DNA of 64,000 nucleotides. Origin: a virus. A program made the translations under genes and the position numbers. The stretch is taken from the IMG/VR virus record IMGVR_UViG_3300050029_000114, positions 1 to 64,000 of that record. One strand, given 5' to 3'. This document shows, in pieces, positions 9,135-55,943 of the stretch. Each line of letters opens with the position of its first letter. The stretch's first letter is position 1. The notes below the pieces were generated by a model. The model was not told the DNA's origin and did no database searches. It saw nothing but the letters and a program-made list of their open reading frames with translations.

Positions 9135-9921
9135 TCACAGCGTGTCCCCGGGCATCTGCTGCCACACGGTCCCGTCAAGCTCAGGCTGGTGAATCTTGCG
9201 GCCGTTCGGCTCAGCGTCCTGCTTGAAGAAGAACGGGATGCCCTGGTCGTAGCAGCGGTCCCGTATCGGCCGCACCCAATCGATGTCCATCGGCCGGGCC
9301 CCGTGCCCGCTCTCCGCCCCGACGATCACCCATCCGATCCCGGTCAGGTCGAGCGAGGGCAGCGGTCCTAGCAGCGGCTCCAAGCTGAGGAACCGGACGG
9401 CGGCTGGGGTGTCCCGCAGGTGGTGGGCTCGGAACGTGAAGCGGTCGCTCTCGATGCTCGTGCCCAGCCAAATGTTGCGAGGTATGCCGACCGGCGGTGA
9501 GCCCTGCCCTGCCGACCAGCGCGCCCGGACGTAGCCGCGCATCCTCGGTGCCCGTTTCGTGAGCACCTGATAGGTGTGGCGGTCCGCTGTCTCCATCACG
9601 TCGAACACGGCGTTGAGGAAGCTGGCTGACGCGTCAGGGTGGAACAGGTCGCTCATGCTGTTCACGAAGATCAGGCGCGGCCGGGTCCAACGGTGCGGCT
9701 GGTCGAGCCGGTCCGGGTGTTCGGTAAACTTGAAACCGGGGCCGCTCGTGCGGGGATCGCCGTCAGCCTGGTAGGCCGCGCTACCCATCCGCTTCAGGCG
9801 GCCCGCCATCGTCAACGCATAGCAGTGGTCACCCGGGTAAGCACCCGGGCGAGACGCGATCGCAACCCGACGAAGGGTTCCAAGTCGCGTCGGTCCAATC
9901 GATGTTCGAGTGGTCGCCCAT
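9135..9921 (-). pseudogene. DUF5131 (phage Gp37/Gp68) protein interrupted by a 10-nt insertion
   Basis: ATG at 9921 gives [27 protein letters not shown] then LPG-stop. The rest (DHCYALTM...IFVNSMSDLFH...SLEPLLG...WVIVGAESG...FFKQ) is in another frame. The extra bases are TTACCCGGGT (9831-9840). Confidence 0.8.
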
Positions 9922-9933
9922 GGTTCTTTTGCC

Positions 9934-10344
9934 TCACCTCACTCTCGTGTTATGGCCCGAGACGAATCTCCTCGGGCGGTTCTCGCTGTCGTACTGCTGG
10001 AAGGTCGCCCCGCAGCCGCACTCGCATCCGGTCGATGGGTTCGGCGCGTCGGGGTGGCGCAAGTCTGTCCTTTTGCGATGATGCACGCGGTGGTGGGGCC
10101 GGTCGGTTACCTCTAGGTTTTCTAGCCGGTTGTCGGCCCTGTTCTCGTTGCGATGGTGGACCTCCTCGCCAACGGCTAGGGGTCTACCAAGATGGGCTGA
10201 GGCCACGAGTACGTGCTCGTAGACGTACCCGCGTACGTCCGCGTTCGGGTGGTCCGGCTGCTTGATCAGGACGTAGCCGTCGGGCGTCACTGTCCGGCCT
10301 CCCTTCCAGTTCGGGTTAGCGGCGCCCGGCTGCGAGCGGCCCAT
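9934..10344 (-). CDS. HNH homing endonuclease
   Basis: [31 protein letters not shown] motifs. Confidence 0.9.
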   Translation of the reverse strand: MGRSQPGAANPNWKGGRTVTPDGYVLIKQPDHPNADVRGYVYEHVLVASAHLGRPLAVGEEVHHRNENRADNRLENLEVTDRPHHRVHHRKRTDLRHPDAPNPSTGCECGCGATFQQYDSENRPRRFVSGHNTRVR

Positions 10345-10646: not shown

Positions 10647-11235
10647 CGGGGTCGCCTTTCGTGATCGTGAACCCGAGCCCGCGTAGGCGTCGGGCGTTGC
10701 TGCGGCGACACTCGCCGCAGTCGTCGTAGCTCATGCCGTCCGGCTGGTCCGGGTGCGTGTACTCCAAGCGGACTAGATGAACCTCGTACTCGATGCCGCC
10801 GATGTCCGGGCCTGCGCCTGGCTTGCCGCACGAGTGGCAGCGCGGCCACGGTCCGGGCCGGTTGAGCCGGGCGCGCCGGTTCGGCTCCGTCAGGATCGCC
10901 TCGATAACCGACCAGTCGGCCGGGGTCCACACGTACGCCCGGACGTGGGCGGCGTTCAAGCTGGCGAGCACTTCCCGCTGGGCGGGTGTCGGCCGGTCCG
11001 GCGGTATCTTCAACTCGGCGGCGATGCAGCCGCCGTGGGCGGGATGCCAGAGGAGCAGGTCGGGCCAGCCGGTGATGTTCGTGCTCGTGATCCACTGGTC
11101 GCCCCTGCCGATGCTGCGCCGGATCGTCAGGAACTGCCAGCCCTGGATGGTGGCGAACTCGGTGACGTGGCGCTGAAATCCGATGTGATTGAGTTTTCCG
11201 CCGCCCATCCCCGGTAGAGGGCGAGGCGCGCTCAC
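10639..11235 (-). CDS. VRR-NUC domain nuclease
   Basis: GWPDLLL...AELK...PTPAQREVL PD-(D/E)xK motif; GTG at 11235 overlaps the upstream stop. Confidence 0.8.
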   Translation of the reverse strand: MSAPRPLPGMGGGKLNHIGFQRHVTEFATIQGWQFLTIRRSIGRGDQWITSTNITGWPDLLLWHPAHGGCIAAELKIPPDRPTPAQREVLASLNAAHVRAYVWTPADWSVIEAILTEPNRRARLNRPGPWPRCHSCGKPGAGPDIGGIEYEVHLVRLEYTHPDQPDGMSYDDCGECRRSNARRLRGLGFTITKGDPDG

Positions 11236-11867
11236 AGTGCCCCCCCTAGGTTGAGCCTGGCGAACTCGCCCCACGCCTCTACTGCGGCCCGGTCGAAGGC
11301 TCGTGCAGCGTCGTCCTCGTTATCGAACAGACCCAGGTACCTTTGACGACCGGCGATCTGGATATTGGCGCGCCATTTACCGCCTGATCGGTCGGTCCAA
11401 CACACGCCCCGGTATCGAGAAGAACCTCCCCGTGACCCTGCGTTAGCGATGTTCTGTGTCCGGGTCGCCGGACGGAGGTTCGATCGGCGGTTATTAAGCC
11501 CGTCTCCATCTCGGTGGTCTATCTCAGTCTTAGGCGGCGCTCCCACGATGAACCGGTGGAGGAGCGCCCATCGCTGCTCAGCTATAAGCCACGCATGGAC
11601 GTAGAAGCGGTCCCCGCTGGTGTGCAACGACCAACTGTGCTCGATCGCCCGATCCCAATCTCCGTCATCCACGTAGGCAACGTGGCCGCTGGGGAGGGAT
11701 AGGACACCGCGTATCGTCTGGCGCGGTGGCTTAGGGGGCCGCTTTGCTCGCTCTCGTTCCCGGTATCGGCGCGCCTTCAGTCGGTTGCGAACGCGTGTCT
11801 CCTCTAGGTCGACGTGCGTCAGTTTCTTCCCGGCGCCCATCCCGGGCAGCGGGCGGGGCGCGCTCAT
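11232..11867 (-). CDS. HNH-AP2 homing endonuclease
   Basis: LHRFI...IDHRDGDGLNNRRSNLR HNH, then AP2 domain SRYRGV...KWRANI...YLGLF...AARAFD; ATG at 11867 coupled to the upstream gene. Confidence 0.9.
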   Translation of the reverse strand: MSAPRPLPGMGAGKKLTHVDLEETRVRNRLKARRYRERERAKRPPKPPRQTIRGVLSLPSGHVAYVDDGDWDRAIEHSWSLHTSGDRFYVHAWLIAEQRWALLHRFIVGAPPKTEIDHRDGDGLNNRRSNLRPATRTQNIANAGSRGGSSRYRGVCWTDRSGGKWRANIQIAGRQRYLGLFDNEDDAARAFDRAAVEAWGEFARLNLGGAL

Positions 11868-22960: not shown

Positions 22961-23683
22961 TCACAGGTCTTCAATGTACCCGCTCGGCTGCGATCTATCC
23001 GTCATCATGCCAGCGTCCCGTCCTCCGCCGTTCGCTTTCGGTGTCGGGCGTTCGTCCAGCCATCTGTCCTTATTCAGCCAGGTAGCGGGGTAGGGGATGA
23101 AGTCCCGTTCGCATCCCGGGAAGGCAGCGAACATACGGGCCGCCGCGATAATCGTGTCCGGGTCGGCGCGCTTGACCGCCTTGTCCCATGCTCGCTTGGC
23201 GTCGGCTCGGGCTACGTGGCGGGGATAGGGGACGTAGAACTCATCGAATCGTGATTCGGGGTTCTTCTTCCCTTCATCTACTTCTAAACCTAATAAAAGG
23301 CGCGATTCCGGTTCAATACCGCTCTCGTGCGGTTTCGAGTCCGCGTCGGTGCGGTTTCGAGTCCGCGTCGGTGCGGTCTTGTCGTCGGGGGTCGTGGGCC
23401 ACAGCCAATAGCTCACGAGAGGGTGCCCTCCCCCGGGGCGAGCCGTGCGCTCGATGGTCACCGCACCGACCGCTGTCAGGTCTGCGATCGCCCTGTCGAG
23501 GGTGTCAGTTGAGTAGCCGGTTAGTTCTGCCAGCCTGGGTCGGCTGGGATGGGCCTCGTCGCTCGTTATGGCATGGGACTGGAGTACTAACAGGAGCCGA
23601 ATGGCGCGGTCTGGAAGCGGCGGGTCGTGGAACAGAAACCGTTTATAGATGGCGACGAATGGCTCGCCGTGAAGGCGGGCCAC
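22961..23683 (-). CDS. Replication initiator (N-terminal wHTH)
   Basis: PSRPRLAELTGYS...RAIADL HTH; C-terminal FDEFY..YP...AW.K...YPATWLN motif; upstream of the DnaC-like gene. Confidence 0.8.
   Translation of the reverse strand: MARLHGEPFVAIYKRFLFHDPPLPDRAIRLLLVLQSHAITSDEAHPSRPRLAELTGYSTDTLDRAIADLTAVGAVTIERTARPGGGHPLVSYWLWPTTPDDKTAPTRTRNRTDADSKPHESGIEPESRLLLGLEVDEGKKNPESRFDEFYVPYPRHVARADAKRAWDKAVKRADPDTIIAAARMFAAFPGCERDFIPYPATWLNKDRWLDERPTPKANGGGRDAGMMTDRSQPSGYIEDL
23327..23377. repeat. 22-bp tandem repeat (probable iterons) in the initiator gene
   Basis: GTGCGGTTTCGAGTCCGCGTCG x2 plus a 7-bp partial copy, beside an AT-rich tract (~23260-23300). Confidence 0.65.
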
Positions 23684-27705: not shown

Positions 27706-28182
27706 CTAGTGGGCTCCGCCTTGATTCTTGGCCTTCCATCGCTTAACTCGGCAGTTGTTGCCGCACACCTGCGCGTCCAATCGGAGCGCCGTGATGTCCA
27801 CCCCGCAAACCTCGCACGCGCGCCGTCCCGCCGCTTGCTTGCGTGCTCGGTTCAAGCTGGCGATCCCTTGTCCGACGATGCCTTCGCCGTGTTGGTTACG
27901 AATGATCGAGCCGATCGGATGGTGCTCACGGTTATGGGTCGACGACGTTTTCGGGACGAGATTGCCGAGCGTGTTGTCGGTCTTGTCCTCGTTGTCGTGG
28001 TGGACGTGGAGGGCCGGGTCCGTTAGCAGCCCGGCATCCCACGCCAGCTTGCGGTGCTCGGCCACATACCCGTCCGCCATCGCAAGCGGGTGCGTCGGCT
28101 CGAACAGCATCACGTATCCCTGGGTGCCGATCCTACGCTTGGTCCCGTAGCTCGGGCGCTTGCCGCCCTTACCGGATCGCAC
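27706..28182 (-). CDS. HNH homing endonuclease
   Basis: YVAEHR...VHHDNEDKTDNTLGNL; C-terminal CEVCG...CGNNCR. Confidence 0.85.
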   Translation of the reverse strand: MRSGKGGKRPSYGTKRRIGTQGYVMLFEPTHPLAMADGYVAEHRKLAWDAGLLTDPALHVHHDNEDKTDNTLGNLVPKTSSTHNREHHPIGSIIRNQHGEGIVGQGIASLNRARKQAAGRRACEVCGVDITALRLDAQVCGNNCRVKRWKAKNQGGAH

Positions 28183-38994: not shown

Positions 38995-39118
38995 CGCCCT
39001 CGGACTCTAGCGCGCTAGGGGCCTCGTGGGTTCGTGGCGGGGACAGTAGAACGGGCCGTTGATATGCCCGCAAGCCTGGCTGCAAACGCAGCAATGGCCC
39101 GGTCCCAATCGGATCGGG

Positions 39119-39526
39119 CTATCCATTCGGATGGGCCTTGCCGGATGCCGGGTCGTTCCATCTCAGGTCGTCGTCCCTACCCATCCCGCACTCGCTGCAC
39201 TTGCCGTGGCCGTACTCGCCTTCGGCCACGTCTGACAACCTGAACGGATGGCCGTCGCCCGGCCAGCCGTCCTCGCTCGGGCTGATGTCGATGAACACTT
39301 CCGGTTGCTTCCCGGTCGCCCGCGCTGTCCGCATGAACTCGTCCCACTGCTCAGCGGCGGCCAGGTTGTTCACCGTCATGCTCAACTGGCCAATGGGGGT
39401 CGCCTTCGCCCAGCTTGCGTTGCGGTCGCCGCGGGCTACCGCCGATAGGTTGATCTGGATGCCTGCATCCTTGCCGGGCAGCAAGGTTAGGCCGGTCAGG
39501 TAGAACTTGGCTCGGGTGGTACGCAT
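39119..39526 (-). CDS. Hypothetical phage protein
   Basis: RAKF...N..WAKATP.G...MTVNN; GAGGAG SD. Confidence 0.65.
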   Translation of the reverse strand: MRTTRAKFYLTGLTLLPGKDAGIQINLSAVARGDRNASWAKATPIGQLSMTVNNLAAAEQWDEFMRTARATGKQPEVFIDISPSEDGWPGDGHPFRLSDVAEGEYGHGKCSECGMGRDDDLRWNDPASGKAHPNG

Positions 39527-39595
39527 CGTGGCTCCTCGCGCTGATAGGGCGGAACTAGCGACGATGCGAGGGGCGCTCGGCCAACTCGACGTTCG

Positions 39596-39668
39596 AGGCG
39601 GAGACGGGACTCGAACCCGTGTCCTCTGGCTTATGAGGCCAACGCGCTACCGACTGCGCCACTCCGCT
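39596..39668 (-). tRNA. tRNA with CAT anticodon (Met; initiator-like 1:72 mismatch)
   Basis: AGCGGAG acceptor, D arm GCGC/GCGC, anticodon loop CTCATAA, T arm ACGGG-TTCGAGT-CCCGT; no encoded CCA. Confidence 0.88.
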
Positions 39669-39685
39669 CCGGCGAGTGTAGCCGC

Positions 39686-39979
39686 TCAGGTGGTCCGGCC
39701 GAGGTATCTGTCGCGCTCGGGGAACGTGCCCGTGCGGATACCGGTCATCAAGTCGTCGGTGATGGTGCCCTCCGGGCTGTAGCCAAGGTCGGCGGGCCAA
39801 TGCTCGATCCTGGCGACCTTGACCGTCTCGTTCGCACGCTTCAAGCGGCGCACCAGTTCCCGGGCCATGCAGTCCGGGCAGTTCGACCGCTCGCATCCGA
39901 CGACGCTCTCGCTGTCGCCCTTCTCCCGCTGGCAGCCGTGGCCGCCCATGGCCTCGATAACTATTCTGTAATCTCCGAT
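39686..39979 (-). CDS. Small Cys-containing protein with a duplicated, recoded 5' end (ATC start at 39979 or ATG at 39949)
   Basis: AAAGAGG-N6-ATC GGA GAT TAC AGA ATA GTT ATC GAG GCC is in frame with MGGHGCQRE. Confidence 0.6.
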   Translation of the reverse strand: MGDYRIVIEAMGGHGCQREKGDSESVVGCERSNCPDCMARELVRRLKRANETVKVARIEHWPADLGYSPEGTITDDLMTGIRTGTFPERDRYLGRTT

Positions 39980-40009
39980 GTCACACCTCTTTCGGGTTAT
40001 TGTTGCTAG

Positions 40010-40705
40010 GTGAAATCTCGATCGGTTGAGCCTTGCCAGGTCGCCGAATGCGGCGGCCGGTTTTACGCCCGTGGATGGTGCCGGTCACACTACAAGCGGT
40101 GGCAACGCTGGGGCGATCCGCTTGGTGTCGGGCCTCGCCGGGTCCGTCCGCCCCGCCCATGCGCCGTCCCGGGCTGCCCGAACCGTCACGCCGCGCATGG
40201 ATACTGCCAGGCGCACTGGACGCGAGTACGCCGATATGGCGACCCGCGGGCCGATCGACCGATCGCTGTCCCGGCTCCAGATCGTTGCATCGTTGAAGGA
40301 TGCGGGCGAAAACCATTCGGGCATGGCCTCTGCCAAGCGCACTATTCGCGCTTACGCCACACCGGCGGCCTTCGAGCGGATATCCCGATCGGTGCTCCTC
40401 GCCGTGAACTAGCCGATGGCGAGGAGCGGATCGGCAAGGATGGGTACGTCTGGACCCGAAGGGCCGGGCAGAGCGGCTACCAGCATCGGCTCCTGATGGC
40501 TGAGCACTTGGGGCGTCCCCTGCTCGGTAATGAGAATGTCCATCACCGCAACGGGGACAGGGCCGACAACCGGCTTGAAAACCTTGAACTCTGGATTGCT
40601 CCGCAGCCGCCGGGGCAGCGGGTAACCGACACATTGATGTGGGCACGAGAGGTTGTCGCGCTCTACAGCGCCCTTGTGGATAGCGGCGATGCGGTGGTTC
40701 GGTAA
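40010..40705 (+). CDS. HNH homing endonuclease with three C..C...C..H zinc-finger repeats
   Basis: [36 protein letters not shown]; the only clear plus-strand gene in the window. Confidence 0.9.
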
Positions 40706-40781
40706 GCCTCAATAACGATCCTGTAGTCACCCATTATCGGTCCTCCTCGGTTGCTGCGTCTGGCCTGCTGGCGCCAGGGTA

Positions 40782-43685
40782 CTAGAAGCCGAGCATCGAC
40801 TCGAACAGCGCGTGGTAGCGGGGCAGCAGCACCTTCCATTCGTGCTCAGCGGCGATCCGGTCGGCCTCCGCGCTCATCCGGCCCATCAGGTCCGGGTCGG
40901 TCTGCAACCGGTCCATGCGCTCCGCCAATGAGGAGGCGTCGGTGTCGTGCAGGTCGACGCGCCCGGCCTGGCAGCGGAAGCTCCGGTACGTCTGACATTC
41001 GATCAGCATCTCGGCCGGGAGGATCGACCGGTTCGGCTCGGCGTCCGGCATGAGCACCGGCATCCCCCGGCTCAGGGCCTCCATCATCGGCAAGCTCTGC
41101 CCGCCGTACCGCCTGGGGGCGATCACCACGTCGCCGTCGTCGTAGAGTCGCCGGTTGTCTCGTACGTCCTCGACTCGTAGGTCTAGCTCGATGTGCGACG
41201 GGAACCGGCGTGGCAGGGTCGGCATCTGTTGGGCGCGCACCACCAGCCGTGTCGGCTGCTCCACGATGTAGAGGGCGTCGATCAGAACGGTCGTCCCGGC
41301 CCGGTCGTGCCCGGCTGGGTGGCCGAGGACATGCAGGAAGCTGCGAACCTCGGTGCGGTGCTCGTAAGGGAAGCGGCTGCGGTCGATGCCATGCGGGACG
41401 TGCACCGCGTCCGGTACCTCGTCGATATGCCACGTCGAGGGGGCGATGAACAGGTCGGGGCGGGGCAGGTCGTGGTCGGCGAAGTACCGGAAGAACTCGA
41501 AGTTGTAGATGCACGCCGTCTTGACGCCCAGCTTGGCGGCCAGGTCGTAGATGCGGTACGCGTACGGTGTCTCGGCGGTGATAACCACGTCGAGCCCGCC
41601 CAGCCATAGCTCTAGCTGCTGGTCGCTGCACGTCAGGTCGCTGCCCTTGAACTCGAACACGGCGGCCCCCGGGAACCGCTCCAAGTGCATCGGGTACGGG
41701 GAGATGTCGCCCATGTCCACGACGAGGGCCTTGTCCGGCTTCAAGTGGCGCACGAGGTCGGCCGACTGGATGCCGAGCCCTCGGTTCTCGCTCCGACAGA
41801 TGATCCCCAACCGTAGGTGGCGGCCCCCGTAGACCGTCTCGTCGCGCGGGTTCGGTGCGCCCTCCGGGGTCGGCCCGTCGTACTCCCACGTCATCCCGTA
41901 CTTCGGGTCGGTCCCCCGGCCGTCGGTGTGCGTCGACCGTTTCAGGTCGCCCTCGGGGGCGTACAACCACAGCTTGAACTCCCCCCACCCGCGGGTTATC
42001 CCCCGCTTCATCCACCGGTTGTGGACGACGCCGTGCAGCACGTCCTCGATCATCGTGCGGGCCTTCGCCCCGAAGTAGTCGGCCATGAGCCACCGGTAAT
42101 GCTCGGTGCCCGACAGGTGGGGCCGCTGGCTCCACTGCACTGTTCGCATCAGCGGGGCGCCCTCCACGTCGACCGGCGCGGTGTCGAGCATCAGGTGTTG
42201 ATGCTCCGGCTGGATGCGCGCCTCGTGGTGCAACCGAATCGTGTGGGCCTGGCCGCTGCGGACGGCCCGCACCAGCGCAGACCAGTCGACCTGGCCGACG
42301 ATCGGGGTATCGTGCTCGACGAACAGAACGCAGTCAGATCGCACCCGGTCGAGCGTCGCTCTCGTCATGGCGGCCTGGTGGGTGTACTCGTCGAACATGA
42401 TCGGCAGGACGTTCCGCCAGCGATGGTTCGTCGCCCACGCCAGCCGCCGCCGGTACTCGTCGTAGTCGGCCCGGCGGTCCTCCTGCTCGGGCCGGAGCCC
42501 GTCGACCATGACCAGTATCTCGCAGTCGCCTAGCTCGGTCTGCGCCCGGATACTGTCGATCGTCTCGGCGATCACGTCGATGCTCGGGTGCGCCGGTATC
42601 ACGCTGGTCGGCATCAGTACCGTCACGGCGGCCGGTACAAGGGAAACGGGCCCCGAAGGGCCCGCTTCCCCGGACGAGTCGTTGCATCGCTCGCCCTCGC
42701 TGGCGGGGCCTTGCGGCCCCTCTATGGGTGTATTCGTGTCGCCCGTGCTGGTGCTGGCGTTGGCCTTCAATGTAGCCAGGTCGTCGGCCAGCCACCAAGC
42801 CATCTCCCGTTTCTTGCCCTGCCACCACGCGTGGCAGCGGGCCGCCTGGGCGGGCCAGTCGTCAAGTACCTGCTCGACCGTCACCCCGAAGTCGGCCCAA
42901 TCCTCCAACACCGGGAACGGCGGCTCCTCCCCGAACAGGTACCGCCAGTATCCTCGCTCGTCCGGCGTGTTCGGGGCGCTCGTGTCAGCTATCGGCACGC
43001 ACCCTGCCTCCAACGCCTCGAACAGCCGGAACGTGTCCGGCGAGTAGGTGCCGCTCGGGCATGGGATGACCTTGCTGGCCGCCATCTCCCTCAGATAGTC
43101 CGGGTAGTCGAACCCGCTCCCGAAGATGCGGGTCACTCGGGTCCGGCCGTCATGGTGGCTGTCCCGGCGGGCCTGCAACGCCTGGATGCACTCCTCCCGG
43201 CGGGCGTTGTTCAACTGCCCGGCGAAGAACCACCCCTGGGTGCGGCGCTCGGCCGGGTCGAACGTGTCCAAGATGCCCGGCGCCTGCGGCGGGAACCCGT
43301 CGCCTATCCGCCGGTCGGCCCGGTCGTGGCGGCCCTCGTGCGGGGTCTGCACCCATACCTTCATGTTCGGGTGGGTCAGCCGCTCGTACGGGAACTCGCC
43401 TTCCTCGTCGCCGCACAGCAGCACGAGCACCCACTGGAACCGGGCGAGCGCCGCGTTGATCTGCTCGACCTGGGTGGCGTACCACCGGGCCGGGAACACG
43501 ACGATCGCCCCGTCCTCGCTCTCAGGGACCTCCTGCGCCGTCGCATAGTGCTCCCACTCCATCGGCAGGGTCGGTGCCCGCCAAGCCCATACGGCCCCGG
43601 CTAGCAGCCCCTCAATGATCCCCTGATCCCAGTAGCCGCGGGCGTAGACGCCGGGCTCGGTGCCCCACCATATGACAGCGGTCAT
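40782..43685 (-). CDS. Tri-modular glycosyltransferase (exostosin/GT47-like + GT-A + GT-B/GT4-like)
   Basis: CPSG...DTFRLFEALEAGCVP; linker; VTVLMPTS...FVEHD; C-terminal YGGQSLPMMEALSRGMPVL. Confidence 0.8.
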   Translation of the reverse strand: MTAVIWWGTEPGVYARGYWDQGIIEGLLAGAVWAWRAPTLPMEWEHYATAQEVPESEDGAIVVFPARWYATQVEQINAALARFQWVLVLLCGDEEGEFPYERLTHPNMKVWVQTPHEGRHDRADRRIGDGFPPQAPGILDTFDPAERRTQGWFFAGQLNNARREECIQALQARRDSHHDGRTRVTRIFGSGFDYPDYLREMAASKVIPCPSGTYSPDTFRLFEALEAGCVPIADTSAPNTPDERGYWRYLFGEEPPFPVLEDWADFGVTVEQVLDDWPAQAARCHAWWQGKKREMAWWLADDLATLKANASTSTGDTNTPIEGPQGPASEGERCNDSSGEAGPSGPVSLVPAAVTVLMPTSVIPAHPSIDVIAETIDSIRAQTELGDCEILVMVDGLRPEQEDRRADYDEYRRRLAWATNHRWRNVLPIMFDEYTHQAAMTRATLDRVRSDCVLFVEHDTPIVGQVDWSALVRAVRSGQAHTIRLHHEARIQPEHQHLMLDTAPVDVEGAPLMRTVQWSQRPHLSGTEHYRWLMADYFGAKARTMIEDVLHGVVHNRWMKRGITRGWGEFKLWLYAPEGDLKRSTHTDGRGTDPKYGMTWEYDGPTPEGAPNPRDETVYGGRHLRLGIICRSENRGLGIQSADLVRHLKPDKALVVDMGDISPYPMHLERFPGAAVFEFKGSDLTCSDQQLELWLGGLDVVITAETPYAYRIYDLAAKLGVKTACIYNFEFFRYFADHDLPRPDLFIAPSTWHIDEVPDAVHVPHGIDRSRFPYEHRTEVRSFLHVLGHPAGHDRAGTTVLIDALYIVEQPTRLVVRAQQMPTLPRRFPSHIELDLRVEDVRDNRRLYDDGDVVIAPRRYGGQSLPMMEALSRGMPVLMPDAEPNRSILPAEMLIECQTYRSFRCQAGRVDLHDTDASSLAERMDRLQTDPDLMGRMSAEADRIAAEHEWKVLLPRYHALFESMLGF

Positions 43686-45374: not shown

Positions 45375-45761
45375 CTAGGGGTTTCTAGCGGCTGCCGTTA
45401 TCGGCGCCCTCTCCCCTGAGCGGTAAGCCCGATCGTAATCCCGGCGGCACTGGCGGCATCGTCGATGTCCCTTCCGGTTGCGCAGGGTGTTCTCCGGCGT
45501 GTAGTCGTGCCCTTGCGGGCAGGCGGTTTTGCCGTTCGTGTCCCGGCGGTCACCGGGGCGTCCGCTGCGCGTGTTGGCTGATCGGGTCGCGGGGCGGAGG
45601 TGGTCGGGATTGCAGCAGCGGCGGTGCGGGCAGGAGCCTCCACCGGGGCACGCCTTGTCCTCGTTATGGCATTGGTGATCCAAGTCGAGTCCCGGCGGTA
45701 CCGGCCCTTTCTTGAGTCGCTGGCGCTCGGCCAGGTTCCGTTGGCGTGGCTTGCGTGGCAC
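45375..45761 (-). CDS. HNH endonuclease (possibly N-terminally truncated)
   Basis: LDHQCHN...RCCNPDHL...N; KTACPQGHDYTPENT...RRCRQC. Confidence 0.75.
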   Translation of the reverse strand: MPRKPRQRNLAERQRLKKGPVPPGLDLDHQCHNEDKACPGGGSCPHRRCCNPDHLRPATRSANTRSGRPGDRRDTNGKTACPQGHDYTPENTLRNRKGHRRCRQCRRDYDRAYRSGERAPITAAARNP

Positions 45762-46704
45762 CGTCCTCCATACCTATCAGCCGCAGAAACTCTGTGACTC
45801 GGTGGGTGTAGGTGTGGAAGTCTAATACGTGCTGGCGGCCCGTTGCGGCTATCTGGCGGCGCTCGTCGTCGGCCTTCACGTAGTAGTCGATCAGCGAGCG
45901 AAGCTGCCCCCAATCGCCTAGCTCCCACAGCCGCAGGTGGGTGCCATCGGTGTAGCTCTCCTCGATACCCTCCGTGTACGGGTGCAACAGGAAGCCGCCC
46001 CGGCCGACCGTCTCCGGTACCCGGTCGCTCCAGTACCAGCCGGTCCCGCCAACCATGCAGGAATCCCCGACGACCACCCGGCTGCTCGCATACAGGTCGG
46101 CCAGGTCGGGGCCTCGTATCCCGCCGCGGCGCCGGTTCGGCCAGAACCTCACCCCGCCCATATCCTTCAGGAACGCGACAAGCTGGCCGCGGTGCGCCCA
46201 CTCCGTGTGGTAGCCGTATCGGGTGCCCACGAACGCCACGTCGGCGTCGAACTCGTCCCGGTACTGGCCGGGTGTCTCCGCCTCCGGCCCGAACACGCCT
46301 GGCGGCAGCCAGTGATGGTTGATCCCCAACGCCTTGAACCGGGCCTGGTTGCCGCCGTCGGCGGTGCACACATGCTCGCACCGGAAGAACGGCGACAGGG
46401 GAATGTCCTCCTCGCGGGGCAAGTCCCACCACTTGTCGAGATGGTATCCGGCGGTCACGATCCCGGCCTGGCGGAGCTTCCCCAACCCGACGATCATGGC
46501 GTCGAGGTCGCTGTCCAGGCCCTTCGTCCGGGTCCACACGACCAGCGGAACCTCGTGCTCCATCGCGATGCCCGGCAGGTCGGCCCACACGTGCTCCTGC
46601 TCCTGCACTCGCACGACCTCATGCCCGGCTAGCTCGAAACTCGCCGACACATGGTTCTCGGTGCTCGACGGCGGCCCGAAGTTCCCGAGATATGCCAGTT
46701 TCAC
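45664..46704 (-). CDS. Glycosyltransferase (Glyco_trans_1_2/CgeB-like)
   Basis: DVAFVG, YWSDRVPETVGRGGFLL, HTYTHRV. Confidence 0.82.
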   Translation of the reverse strand: MKLAYLGNFGPPSSTENHVSASFELAGHEVVRVQEQEHVWADLPGIAMEHEVPLVVWTRTKGLDSDLDAMIVGLGKLRQAGIVTAGYHLDKWWDLPREEDIPLSPFFRCEHVCTADGGNQARFKALGINHHWLPPGVFGPEAETPGQYRDEFDADVAFVGTRYGYHTEWAHRGQLVAFLKDMGGVRFWPNRRRGGIRGPDLADLYASSRVVVGDSCMVGGTGWYWSDRVPETVGRGGFLLHPYTEGIEESYTDGTHLRLWELGDWGQLRSLIDYYVKADDERRQIAATGRQHVLDFHTYTHRVTEFLRLIGMEDGATQATPTEPGRAPATQERAGTAGTRLGSPMP

Positions 46705-54717: not shown

Positions 54718-54732
54718 GTCAGGCCCCCAAAC

Positions 54733-55326
54733 CTAAAGCCAGGCGCGCTCCAGATAGGCGACAGCCCGCTTCGCTACCGCTGGGTCGTCTCCCATAAATC
54801 CGATCGCACGATTGCATGGTCCGCACAGTAGCGCCCTCACTTTCCCGCTCCGGTGACAATGGTCGATATCTAGCGGTCGATCCGTCCGTAGGCAGATCGG
54901 GCACTCGCCCTGCTGGGCGTCGACCAACGCCTGGTATTCCTCGGCGGTCAGTCCTCGCCTGCGGAGCCGGGCATTGAGTCGTACCTGTACCCGATTCGCC
55001 GCGCTCCAGCGGTTCATGGCTGCCGCGAGGCATGGTCGACAGGTCCGCTTCGGCTGGTCCCGAGTCGTATCCCAACCGAACTCGCCCTCGTCCACGAACT
55101 GCTTGCACGACCCGCACCACCGATATCCCTCCGCTGAGTCCGGCCTCGATGGACGAACGGCACGCAACTCGATCCCGCGTCGCTTCTGATCTGCATGGGC
55201 GGCGCATAACCCGTGGGCATGATTCATTCGATCGCACTCGGGGAAGCTGCACTTCTGCCGTCCTTTAGGTCGCTTCGGTTTGCGAGGGGTCTTTGGTCGA
55301 GCGGCGAACTTCTCGGGTCTTTCCAT
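54733..55326 (-). CDS. Endonuclease VII-family (recombination/homing) endonuclease
   Basis: Q.G.CPIC...L.IDHCH.SGKVRALLC..CN..IG; leaderless TAGAAT-N6-ATG. Confidence 0.9.
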   Translation of the reverse strand: MERPEKFAARPKTPRKPKRPKGRQKCSFPECDRMNHAHGLCAAHADQKRRGIELRAVRPSRPDSAEGYRWCGSCKQFVDEGEFGWDTTRDQPKRTCRPCLAAAMNRWSAANRVQVRLNARLRRRGLTAEEYQALVDAQQGECPICLRTDRPLDIDHCHRSGKVRALLCGPCNRAIGFMGDDPAVAKRAVAYLERAWL

Positions 55327-55367
55327 GCGGCCATTCTAGCCGCTCGTTGTAAGGTGGAACTAGTCGG

Positions 55368-55943
55368 TCAAGCACCCAAAAGCTGGTGGTTCCAGTCGAC
55401 GACCAGGCTGTCCGAGGCGCCCTTGTTCACGACCGGGCTCAGCAACGCCCGGCTGATCGTGTTCGCCGCGGTGCTCGTCGCGTCGGCCAGCGTGTCGTTC
55501 ACGATCACGACCTCGGCCAGCGAGTTGACGGTGACCACTCCGGCCGCCCAAGTCGTCTGCCATTGAATCTGGCGGGACGACCCGGAGAGCGTCGACTTCG
55601 GCCACGTCGCGTCGATCGCCACGTCGGAAGTCGCCGTGTACGTCACGAGGGCGGCCCCGGCGCCCGTCTTGGCGACAGCGGTGTTCCCGATGCCGAGCTT
55701 CATGCACGTCACCTGGCCGGGCGGGGAACCGATACCGGCGGCCCGCTCCCCGTAGTACTGGTCGCCGATCTGCGTGATCAGGTTGCGGAACACCCCAAGT
55801 TCCTTCAGGTGTCCGTCCTCGTCGACCAACCGGAAGAAGCCGTGCCCGGTCAGGCCGACGCCATCGACATTCCCCACGTCCCGGGGCCGGACGCCGAGAA
55901 CCTGGCAGGCCCGGTGGAAGCTGGGAACCTCTATAGCTCGCAT
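55368..55943 (-). CDS. Virion/tail-associated protein
   Basis: NLIT..G...MKLG.G.T; ends DWNHQLLGA. Confidence 0.6.
   Translation of the reverse strand: MRAIEVPSFHRACQVLGVRPRDVGNVDGVGLTGHGFFRLVDEDGHLKELGVFRNLITQIGDQYYGERAAGIGSPPGQVTCMKLGIGNTAVAKTGAGAALVTYTATSDVAIDATWPKSTLSGSSRQIQWQTTWAAGVVTVNSLAEVVIVNDTLADATSTAANTISRALLSPVVNKGASDSLVVDWNHQLLGA

Follow-up and report, generated by a model that had tools for sequence, protein, structure and literature searches.

Gene-end replacement by homing endonucleases is an established principle in yeast and in mitochondria. [quoted passage not shown] A sensitive allele is cut, its repair introduces the endonuclease gene and, with it, a diverged, resistant gene end, and the original end comes to lie on the far side (PMC7282813). 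Fungal mitochondria contain partial C-terminal duplications of cob and atp6 beside endonuclease ORFs, e.g. in Endoconidiophora resinifera (PMC6279837). The HNH element MobA of T4-like phages carries homR, a diverged replacement of the target segment that holds the nick site (bioRxiv 10.1101/2022.08.31.505936). The inserted state is protected from re-cutting, with immunity via a 50-nt translational bypass (bioRxiv 10.1101/2022.08.31.505936; review PMC2988022). One-sided, illegitimate break repair has been documented in T4 (review PMC2988022).

A related layout was analysed in a window of 64,000 nucleotides, positions 1 to 64,000 of the IMG/VR virus record IMGVR_UViG_3300050029_000114. The record comprises 86,051 bp. 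The window has a GC content of about 67%, and nearly all genes are located on the minus strand. The small gene considered here, termed gene X, is split after codon 10. Read in minus-strand order, the locus consists of the following features.

40782, minus strand: stop of a 1067-aa glycosyltransferase-like gene, the first in order, followed by an intergenic region and the native Shine-Dalgarno sequence.
40748-40742, minus strand: native Shine-Dalgarno sequence GAGGAGG, 7 nt before the ATG at 40734 and contiguous with the intergenic region after the glycosyltransferase-like gene.
40734-40705, minus strand: displaced native 5' end of gene X, ATG and codons 2-10, encoding the N-terminal peptide conserved in the family.
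40734-40663, minus strand: remnant ORF of 23 codons (the decapeptide, 13 further residues and a stop), in which the displaced start enters the HNH gene antisense.
40010-40705, plus strand: free-standing HNH_3 homing-endonuclease gene, 231 aa, GTG start, antisense to all neighbouring genes.
39980-40009, no strand assigned: spacer of 30 nt, 47% GC, with the replacement Shine-Dalgarno sequence AAAGAGG on the minus strand and TATTGT on the plus strand.
39992-39986, minus strand: replacement Shine-Dalgarno sequence AAAGAGG, 6 nt before the ATC at 39979.
39979-39950, minus strand: replacement copy, covering codons 1-10 and continuing in frame into the gene X body, with ATC at the start position.
39949-39686, minus strand: gene X body from codon 11 to the stop, beginning with ATG at 39949 (Met11).
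39595-39668: tRNA-Met gene, after gene X in minus-strand order.

The nuclease gene is located between the displaced old end and the in-frame replacement end of gene X, as in gene-end-replacement elements. The best reading, adopted with moderate confidence, is gene-end-replacement homing in a 5' form, carried out by a free-standing homing endonuclease. Both strands were re-read, and the coordinates and codon comparison of an earlier sequence-only reading of this DNA proved correct. It had placed the end of the upstream copy exactly at the HNH stop, which holds to within 1 nt: the TAA stop (40703-40705) overlaps the last base of displaced codon 10. Past codon 10, the remnant frame continues for 13 further codons up to a TAG stop at 40665-40663.

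WHO elements and the gene X locus have in common an endonuclease gene beside a full-length target, a gene end replaced by a diverged copy, a displaced old end and the lack of splicing. WHO replaces the 3' end, whereas the gene X locus has a replaced 5' end including the ribosome-binding site and the start codon (ATC). The WHO enzyme is an intein-like LAGLIDADG-zinc-finger protein (HO/VDE-like) acting in a eukaryotic nucleus, in contrast to a phage enzyme of the HNH_3 type that does not belong to the WHO family. Resistance conferred by the copy, allele-specific cleavage and repeated homing have been shown for WHO and would be predictions for the gene X locus. The mobile ORFs of mitochondria, with Allomyces atp6 as a further example, share with gene X a homing-endonuclease ORF flanked by partial duplicates of a host gene end. 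Unlike the gene X locus, they are organellar, affect 3' ends, encode GIY-YIG or LAGLIDADG enzymes and carry fragments of hundreds of nucleotides.

MobA resembles the present case as a phage HNH element inside a coding sequence with an insert-encoded, diverged copy of the target. However, it deletes the native segment and splits the protein into two polypeptides, whereas at gene X the duplicate is left in place, the split occurs after codon 10, and a one-piece protein is encoded with no bypass. Features of the T4 gene 60 type are absent: the copy joins the gene X body directly and without a gap, and the remnant comprises ten native codons. Other known in-gene insertions, Aeh1 nrdA and T4 gene 39/60, give genes in pieces, unlike gene X. 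The free-standing seg and mob endonucleases of T4 are, like the HNH gene, sporadic, located beside a conserved target and foreign in codon usage. Classical free-standing phage endonucleases sit between genes without duplicated coding sequence, which distinguishes them from the gene X locus. A phage description of a 5'-end duplication by a homing endonuclease was not found in the literature searched. New here are the 5' end, the phage and the antisense HNH gene. The layout had earlier been called a little-described mode of homing; this overstates its novelty, as the mode has been shown experimentally for WHO, has been seen in fungal mitochondria and is partly paralleled by the homR of MobA.

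The displaced copy (40734-40705, minus strand) reads ATG GGT GAC TAC AGG ATC GTT ATT GAG GCT, and the replacement copy (39979-39950, minus strand) reads ATC GGA GAT TAC AGA ATA GTT ATC GAG GCC. They are identical at 23 of 30 nt, and their longest shared identical run is 5 nt. Seven of the ten codons differ, always at position 3. Six of these changes are synonymous and the seventh converts ATG into ATC at the start, so that all residues of codons 2-10 are kept (9/9). Both copies have diverged under selection for the peptide, which was kept in 4e-5 of the trials with six random substitutions in codons 2-10 (neutral P about 4e-5).

An allele from another locus, L004, encodes the identical decapeptide and differs from the upstream copy at 6 nt and from the downstream copy at 7 nt. 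The two copies are therefore as distant from each other as from an unrelated allele, and their divergence corresponds to ordinary allele divergence. The deliberate recoding suggested by the sequence-only reading is thus unneeded. The start codon marks the exact limit of homology between the two copies, whose ribosome-binding regions are unrelated. Together with the L004-level divergence, this makes the downstream copy look like a borrowing from another phage's X allele that arrived with the nuclease; a fresh duplication of the resident sequence fits poorly. The displaced copy is contiguous with resident sequence and matches the closest allele, L003, at each of its first 12 nt. Its peptide is still perfect, which indicates an event that is recent relative to neutral decay. 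GC3 is low in both copies (0.56 and 0.44), and composition alone thus does not say which of them is foreign.

Direct repeats of this kind, which sit exactly at the two sides of the insert and share one encoded peptide, could also result from a target-site duplication in situ, in which insertion of the HNH gene doubled 30 bp of the resident gene and silent drift followed. This would have required 23% divergence in a non-functional remnant with no amino-acid change (P about 4e-5), while the HNH ORF stayed intact. HNH enzymes leave overhangs of a few bases, too short to yield 30 nt. The end of homology at the start codon and the unrelated ribosome-binding regions also speak against such a duplication, which is very unlikely.

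The duplication is neither a chance match nor an assembly artefact. Peptide repeats 150-3000 nt apart were sought in a six-frame scan of the whole 86-kb genome. The scan yielded low-complexity (shadow-frame) matches, a real repeat domain at 65-66 kb, the gene X pair and a similar pair at 11867/11235. Another match, at 23068/22359 (DRWLDERPT), was dismissed as a chance match between two different proteins. A second assembly of the probable source run, a peat metagenome, showed no differences between 38500 and 42000 in its Logan contig (85,730 nt, depth 24). Among the sequencing runs searched, this one alone contained the stretch, and no RNA run was listed for it. The contigs of the source run contained only the occupied form, with neither a nuclease-free variant nor a variant at the ATC.

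The record is a metagenome assembly from peat that was inspected as contigs, and two strain variants of the X start might in principle have been stitched around the HNH gene. Such a chimera is highly improbable: the IMG/VR and Logan assemblies are identical over 3.5 kb (depth 24) with no alternative joint, the junctions are codon-precise, and a second similar locus lies 28 kb away.

Gene X is a small conserved phage gene of about 97 aa, rich in cysteine and histidine. The search yielded 35 protein homologues, and X loci were collected from viral (35), metagenome (73) and genome sequences (6). All 27 aligned homologues start with [MV]G, 24 of them with MGD[FY], and G2 is invariant. The commonest N-terminus is MGD[FY]R[IV]x[IV]EA, followed by GGHGCQRE; homologues thus carry GD[YF]RIVIEA as their N-terminus, in agreement with the sequence-only reading. 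The uninterrupted allele that this reading called for exists in numbers, as 81 distinct viral or metagenome alleles and 5 genome alleles. All of them are uninterrupted, with the N-terminal peptide encoded a single time and no HNH gene alongside. Of the 81 alleles, 74 start with ATG and 7 with GTG; the five genome alleles that include codon 1 all have ATG (5/5). The conserved M/V-G-D-[FY]-R start in about 87 uninterrupted alleles identifies the decapeptide as the native N-terminus and empty sites as the rule.

The closest genome loci belong to Dactylosporangium, a Jiangellaceae MAG and a Micromonosporaceae MAG; to judge from these relatives, the sequences point to an actinobacterial host. Gene X has no conserved neighbours across about 110 loci, and none of these has neighbours in common with the window. 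Neither the locus nor X had a counterpart in 50,697 phage records, in searches for near matches or at protein level. Relatives of the glycosyltransferase C-terminus or of a downstream 135-aa gene were not present in the viral contigs scanned. No syntenic empty site occurs among the contigs scanned, so that the pre-insertion state of this lineage is a reconstruction.

An AlphaFold2 model of X, calculated from the alignment, reached a pLDDT of 90.8 and places the first beta-strand at residues 3-12. According to this model, the decapeptide would be structurally needed, and a protein started at Met11 would be without a core element. No Pfam or PHROG match was found for X, and comparisons of the model gave no usable fold (Foldseek against PDB, best E 0.12; VIA-align wide, best Z 3.4). 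The residues H14, C16, C29, C34, C37 and H60 are invariant and suggest metal binding. A distance of 3 nt separates the insertion point (nt 30/31) from the 18-nt block that follows it (nt 34-51, GGHGCQ), the most conserved one within the first 150 nt of 69 alleles. Homing enzymes typically target conserved sequence blocks.

The start of the interrupted gene deserves separate consideration. The ATC at the replacement start is unique among about 87 alleles. The frame contains no other canonical start from the stop at 40087 to Met11, and its sole other near-cognate codons are ATA at 40000 and CTG at 40039. The spacing of the replacement Shine-Dalgarno sequence suits position 39979 and not Met11. 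In E. coli, initiation at AUC reaches about 1-2% of that at AUG, with methionine as the first residue (bioRxiv 10.1101/063800). Full-length X is probably made weakly from the ATC, or else not at all, with translation starting at Met11 instead. Given the ATC start, the gene may be crippled rather than repaired. The repair of the gene that had been proposed from the sequence is imperfect: an in-frame replacement N-terminus is present, but it carries ATC where the 86 other alleles have ATG or GTG, and no other canonical start precedes Met11. The only X product on record is an 87-aa protein from Met11 (P0001), and the protein collection does not contain the HNH protein of the window. In the public annotation, the nuclease was probably overlooked and the start of X misplaced.

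The nuclease gene, already recognized as such from the sequence, is real, intact and compositionally foreign. Its 231-aa open frame has no internal stops and matches Pfam HNH_3 (PF13392) with an E-value of 2.7e-8 and 33.8 bits vs a cut-off of 24.8. The domain is located at 40478-40591 on the genome and is preceded by three Cys/His repeats. Several PHROG HNH families are matched, down to E 3e-25. The protein has 2206 homologues at E<=1e-10, the best of them 43% identical. Relatives in isolated phages are annotated as HNH endonucleases of Streptomyces, Mycobacterium, Gordonia and Microbacterium phages, while for those in viral contigs identity does not exceed 40%, apart from 61% over a short segment. 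GC3 of the gene is 0.67 vs 0.84-0.91 for its neighbours. Similarly low values were obtained for the two other clearest selfish nuclease genes of the genome, HNH-AP2 (0.69) and endonuclease VII (0.68). The occurrence of the HNH gene is sporadic: none is present at or next to the site in the 81 distinct viral and metagenome alleles or in the 5 genome alleles.

Of the two starts, the upstream one has a proper ATG and the better ribosome-binding site, which would fit a true start at 40734 and removal of the insert at the RNA or protein level by an intron, an intein or ribosome bypass. However, Rfam intron families gave no match even at E<=1 across 39400-41000, and an intein is excluded by the antisense orientation of the nuclease gene to the interrupted ORF. 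The two copies are 755 nt apart, with a remainder of 2, and are thus in different frames; excision of the insert would moreover double the decapeptide. A bypass of 725 nt is without known precedent. Removal is extremely improbable, and the HNH gene is, as far as its sequence context tells, free-standing, in neither a self-splicing intron nor an intein, as the sequence-only reading had it.

Under gene-end-replacement homing at the 5' end, the events at this locus may be reconstructed as follows. Ancestral X would have been uninterrupted here and read from the GAGGAGG and the ATG at 40734. The HNH_3 gene would have arrived from another phage by break repair, and the donor phage's spelling of the X ribosome-binding site and of the first ten codons would have come along with it. 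The old start would then have been stranded upstream as the 23-codon remnant, followed by the antisense nuclease gene and by codons 1-10 of a foreign allele joined in frame to the resident X body. A replacement at the 5' end demands that the element also bring a ribosome-binding site and a start codon. The enzyme is predicted to cut naive alleles near codons 10-17, and the replacement copy is predicted to be immune. An identical copy beside the intact GGHGC block would rebuild the nuclease target at the junction and would form a perfect repeat of 30 nt, permitting deletion of the cassette by recombination. On these grounds, only a differently spelled copy would be stable.

The layout could first arise via one-sided, illegitimate break repair of the kind documented in T4. 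This route is plausible here because X is found in different neighbourhoods in different phages. Taken by itself, it leads to a different explanation, in which the layout is the scar of a single repair. A donor would have carried the HNH gene just upstream of an intact X, and the cut would have occurred near codon 10. With homology available downstream only, the upstream break end would have been joined illegitimately just past the HNH stop. The duplication would then be accidental, the nuclease and the replacement start would not home as a unit, and X would be decaying, as its ATC might indicate. Two-sided homology would often be missing, given the lack of conserved X neighbours in about 110 loci. 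One-sided homing with illegitimate, microhomology-mediated joins is known in T4, according to a review (PMC2988022, citing Parker et al., 1999). ATC starts are absent from all other alleles, and the cassette itself is unique in all collections searched: a second copy was found neither in the viral, metagenome or genome collections nor among 5.8 billion proteins. Around the three to five HNH relatives with readable flanks, a flanking duplication was absent. For these last two reasons, an accidental scar is a serious rival, although an unlikely one. The same genome holds a second, independent instance in which a nuclease is fused in frame to the displaced start, which argues for a recurrent, selectable layout. 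Moreover, a single accidental repair explains the origin of the layout and is in this respect compatible with gene-end-replacement homing.

The genome encodes five HNH_3-type nucleases and one endonuclease VII, and two of these genes show the layout. In the second case (11203-11867), the first 11 codons of a VRR-NUC gene, encoding MSAPRPLPGMG, form one reading frame with an HNH-AP2 ORF. The VRR-NUC gene itself lies downstream, starts with GTG and repeats the 11 codons in synonymous form. MSAPRPLP is also the N-terminus of a VRR-NUC homologue (P0162). A search of the phage records with the VRR-NUC protein returned nothing. A third candidate, the "LGA-stop" bracket at the endonuclease VII gene (54719-55382), consists of three residues and a stop. 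It is below the 6/7-residue threshold of the flank scan and was not convincing. Repeated use of the layout by unrelated nuclease families had been proposed. The repetition stands, as the second case was confirmed, but its nuclease also has an HNH_3 domain, and the endonuclease VII case fell below the threshold. As a whole, the original observation is confirmed and its interpretation partly supported.

To judge from its organization, the locus presents a free-standing homing endonuclease inside a phage coding sequence with no intron, intein or split protein. Differently spelled first codons widen the set of sites open to such elements. The layout also accounts for peculiar "orphan start" mini-ORFs and for wrongly called gene starts in the annotation of phages. 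The two forms of the X start are a compact, natural candidate pair of a sensitive and an immune target for an uncharacterised HNH enzyme. The interest is tempered by the known principle, by the lack of any sign of spread in the collections searched and by a repair that may be defective.

A more far-reaching proposal is possible but doubtful. Replacement of 5' codons might be a regular insertion mode of phage free-standing homing endonucleases, based on a 60-nt module that would supply an N-terminus with its Shine-Dalgarno sequence, immunity, resistance to deletion and a leaderless promoter for the nuclease. The ATC would in this case be a tolerated or selected throttle on X. A generic scan of 39400-41000 for sigma-70 promoter and terminator consensus sequences gave no hits. 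The plus-strand TATTGT at 39998-40003 occupies -12 to -7 of the HNH GTG. This hexamer spacing is the geometry of leaderless actinobacterial promoters, and the HNH gene may be expressed from such a candidate promoter in the spacer. Two further TAnnnT hexamers, at 39962-39967 and 39969-39974, result from the silent changes in the replacement copy.

The 86-kb genome carries six homing-type nuclease genes: five match HNH_3, and the sixth is an endonuclease VII gene. These genes and the sites discussed here are:

9934-10344, third HNH gene, with its stop immediately before ATG 9921 of the DUF5131/phrog_2045 gene
11232-11867, homing-type nuclease gene
27706-28182, homing-type nuclease gene
40010-40705, plus strand, HNH_3 gene splitting gene X
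about 45398-45800, homing-type nuclease gene
54733-55326, homing-type nuclease gene
11203-11867, minus strand, HNH_3+AP2 ORF followed by a VRR-NUC gene, second case of the main-locus layout
9829-9936, minus strand, site of the DUF5131/phrog_2045 gene start (ATG 9921), directly after the third HNH gene
54719-55382, endonuclease VII site (PF02945, E 1.6e-23; match given as 54748-60)

GC3 is clearly lower in three of the six nuclease genes (0.67-0.69) than in the surrounding phage genes (0.84-0.91).

The layout of the main locus, a nuclease gene between a displaced gene start and a differently spelled replacement start, recurs at 11203-11867. The HNH_3+AP2 ORF begins at ATG 11867 with the N-terminus MSAPRPLPGMG. 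The VRR-NUC gene (PF08774) that follows it opens at GTG 11235 and encodes the identical 11 residues in another spelling; the two 11-codon copies differ by four silent changes and the start codon. A VRR-NUC homologue (P0162) has the N-terminus MSAPRPLP, and the peptide is therefore native to the target gene. The nuclease lies in sense orientation and has borrowed the displaced VRR-NUC start as its own.

In the DUF5131/phrog_2045 gene, the frame from ATG 9921 runs to ...VSPGC LPG stop, and DHCYALTMAGRL... then follows in the +1 frame (ORF 9135-9815). Where VSPGCDHCYA would be expected, the gene contains a 10-nt insertion, TTACCCGGGT, which creates the imperfect repeat CCCGGGTG-CTTA-CCCGGGTG within the conserved Cys motif. 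This could represent a broken gene, an immunity scar directed at the adjacent HNH, or a programmed frameshift; the sequence GGG TGA C is similar to a prfB-type +1 shift site.

The endonuclease VII gene had been described as lying between two copies of the final residues of the gene upstream. The repeat consists of Leu-Gly-Ala-stop only, below 6/7 residues in the flank scan. Homologues of the gene at 55368-55943 would be needed before the site could count as a third case.

Gene X (39686-39979, minus strand) and its alleles at the fetched loci L003-L124 form a family of small proteins, about 100 aa long, in which H14, C16, C29, C34, C37 and H60 are invariant. The AlphaFold2 model is confident; no match was found in Pfam, PHROG or among PDB folds. 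Members are widespread, both among viral contigs from soil and peat and in actinobacterial genomes (Dactylosporangium, Jiangellaceae, Micromonosporaceae), with different neighbours at every locus. The public protein collection holds gene X solely as an 87-aa product from Met11 (P0001), and the HNH protein of 40010-40705 is absent from it. The original gene call probably overlooked the nuclease and took instead a 249-aa shadow ORF antisense to it (39981-40730).

The palindrome TAGCGCGCTA occurs at 12 sites between 1313 and 47964 with at most one mismatch (1.6 expected; maximum of 5 in 100 shuffles). Its copy closest to the HNH/gene X locus lies at 39008-39017.
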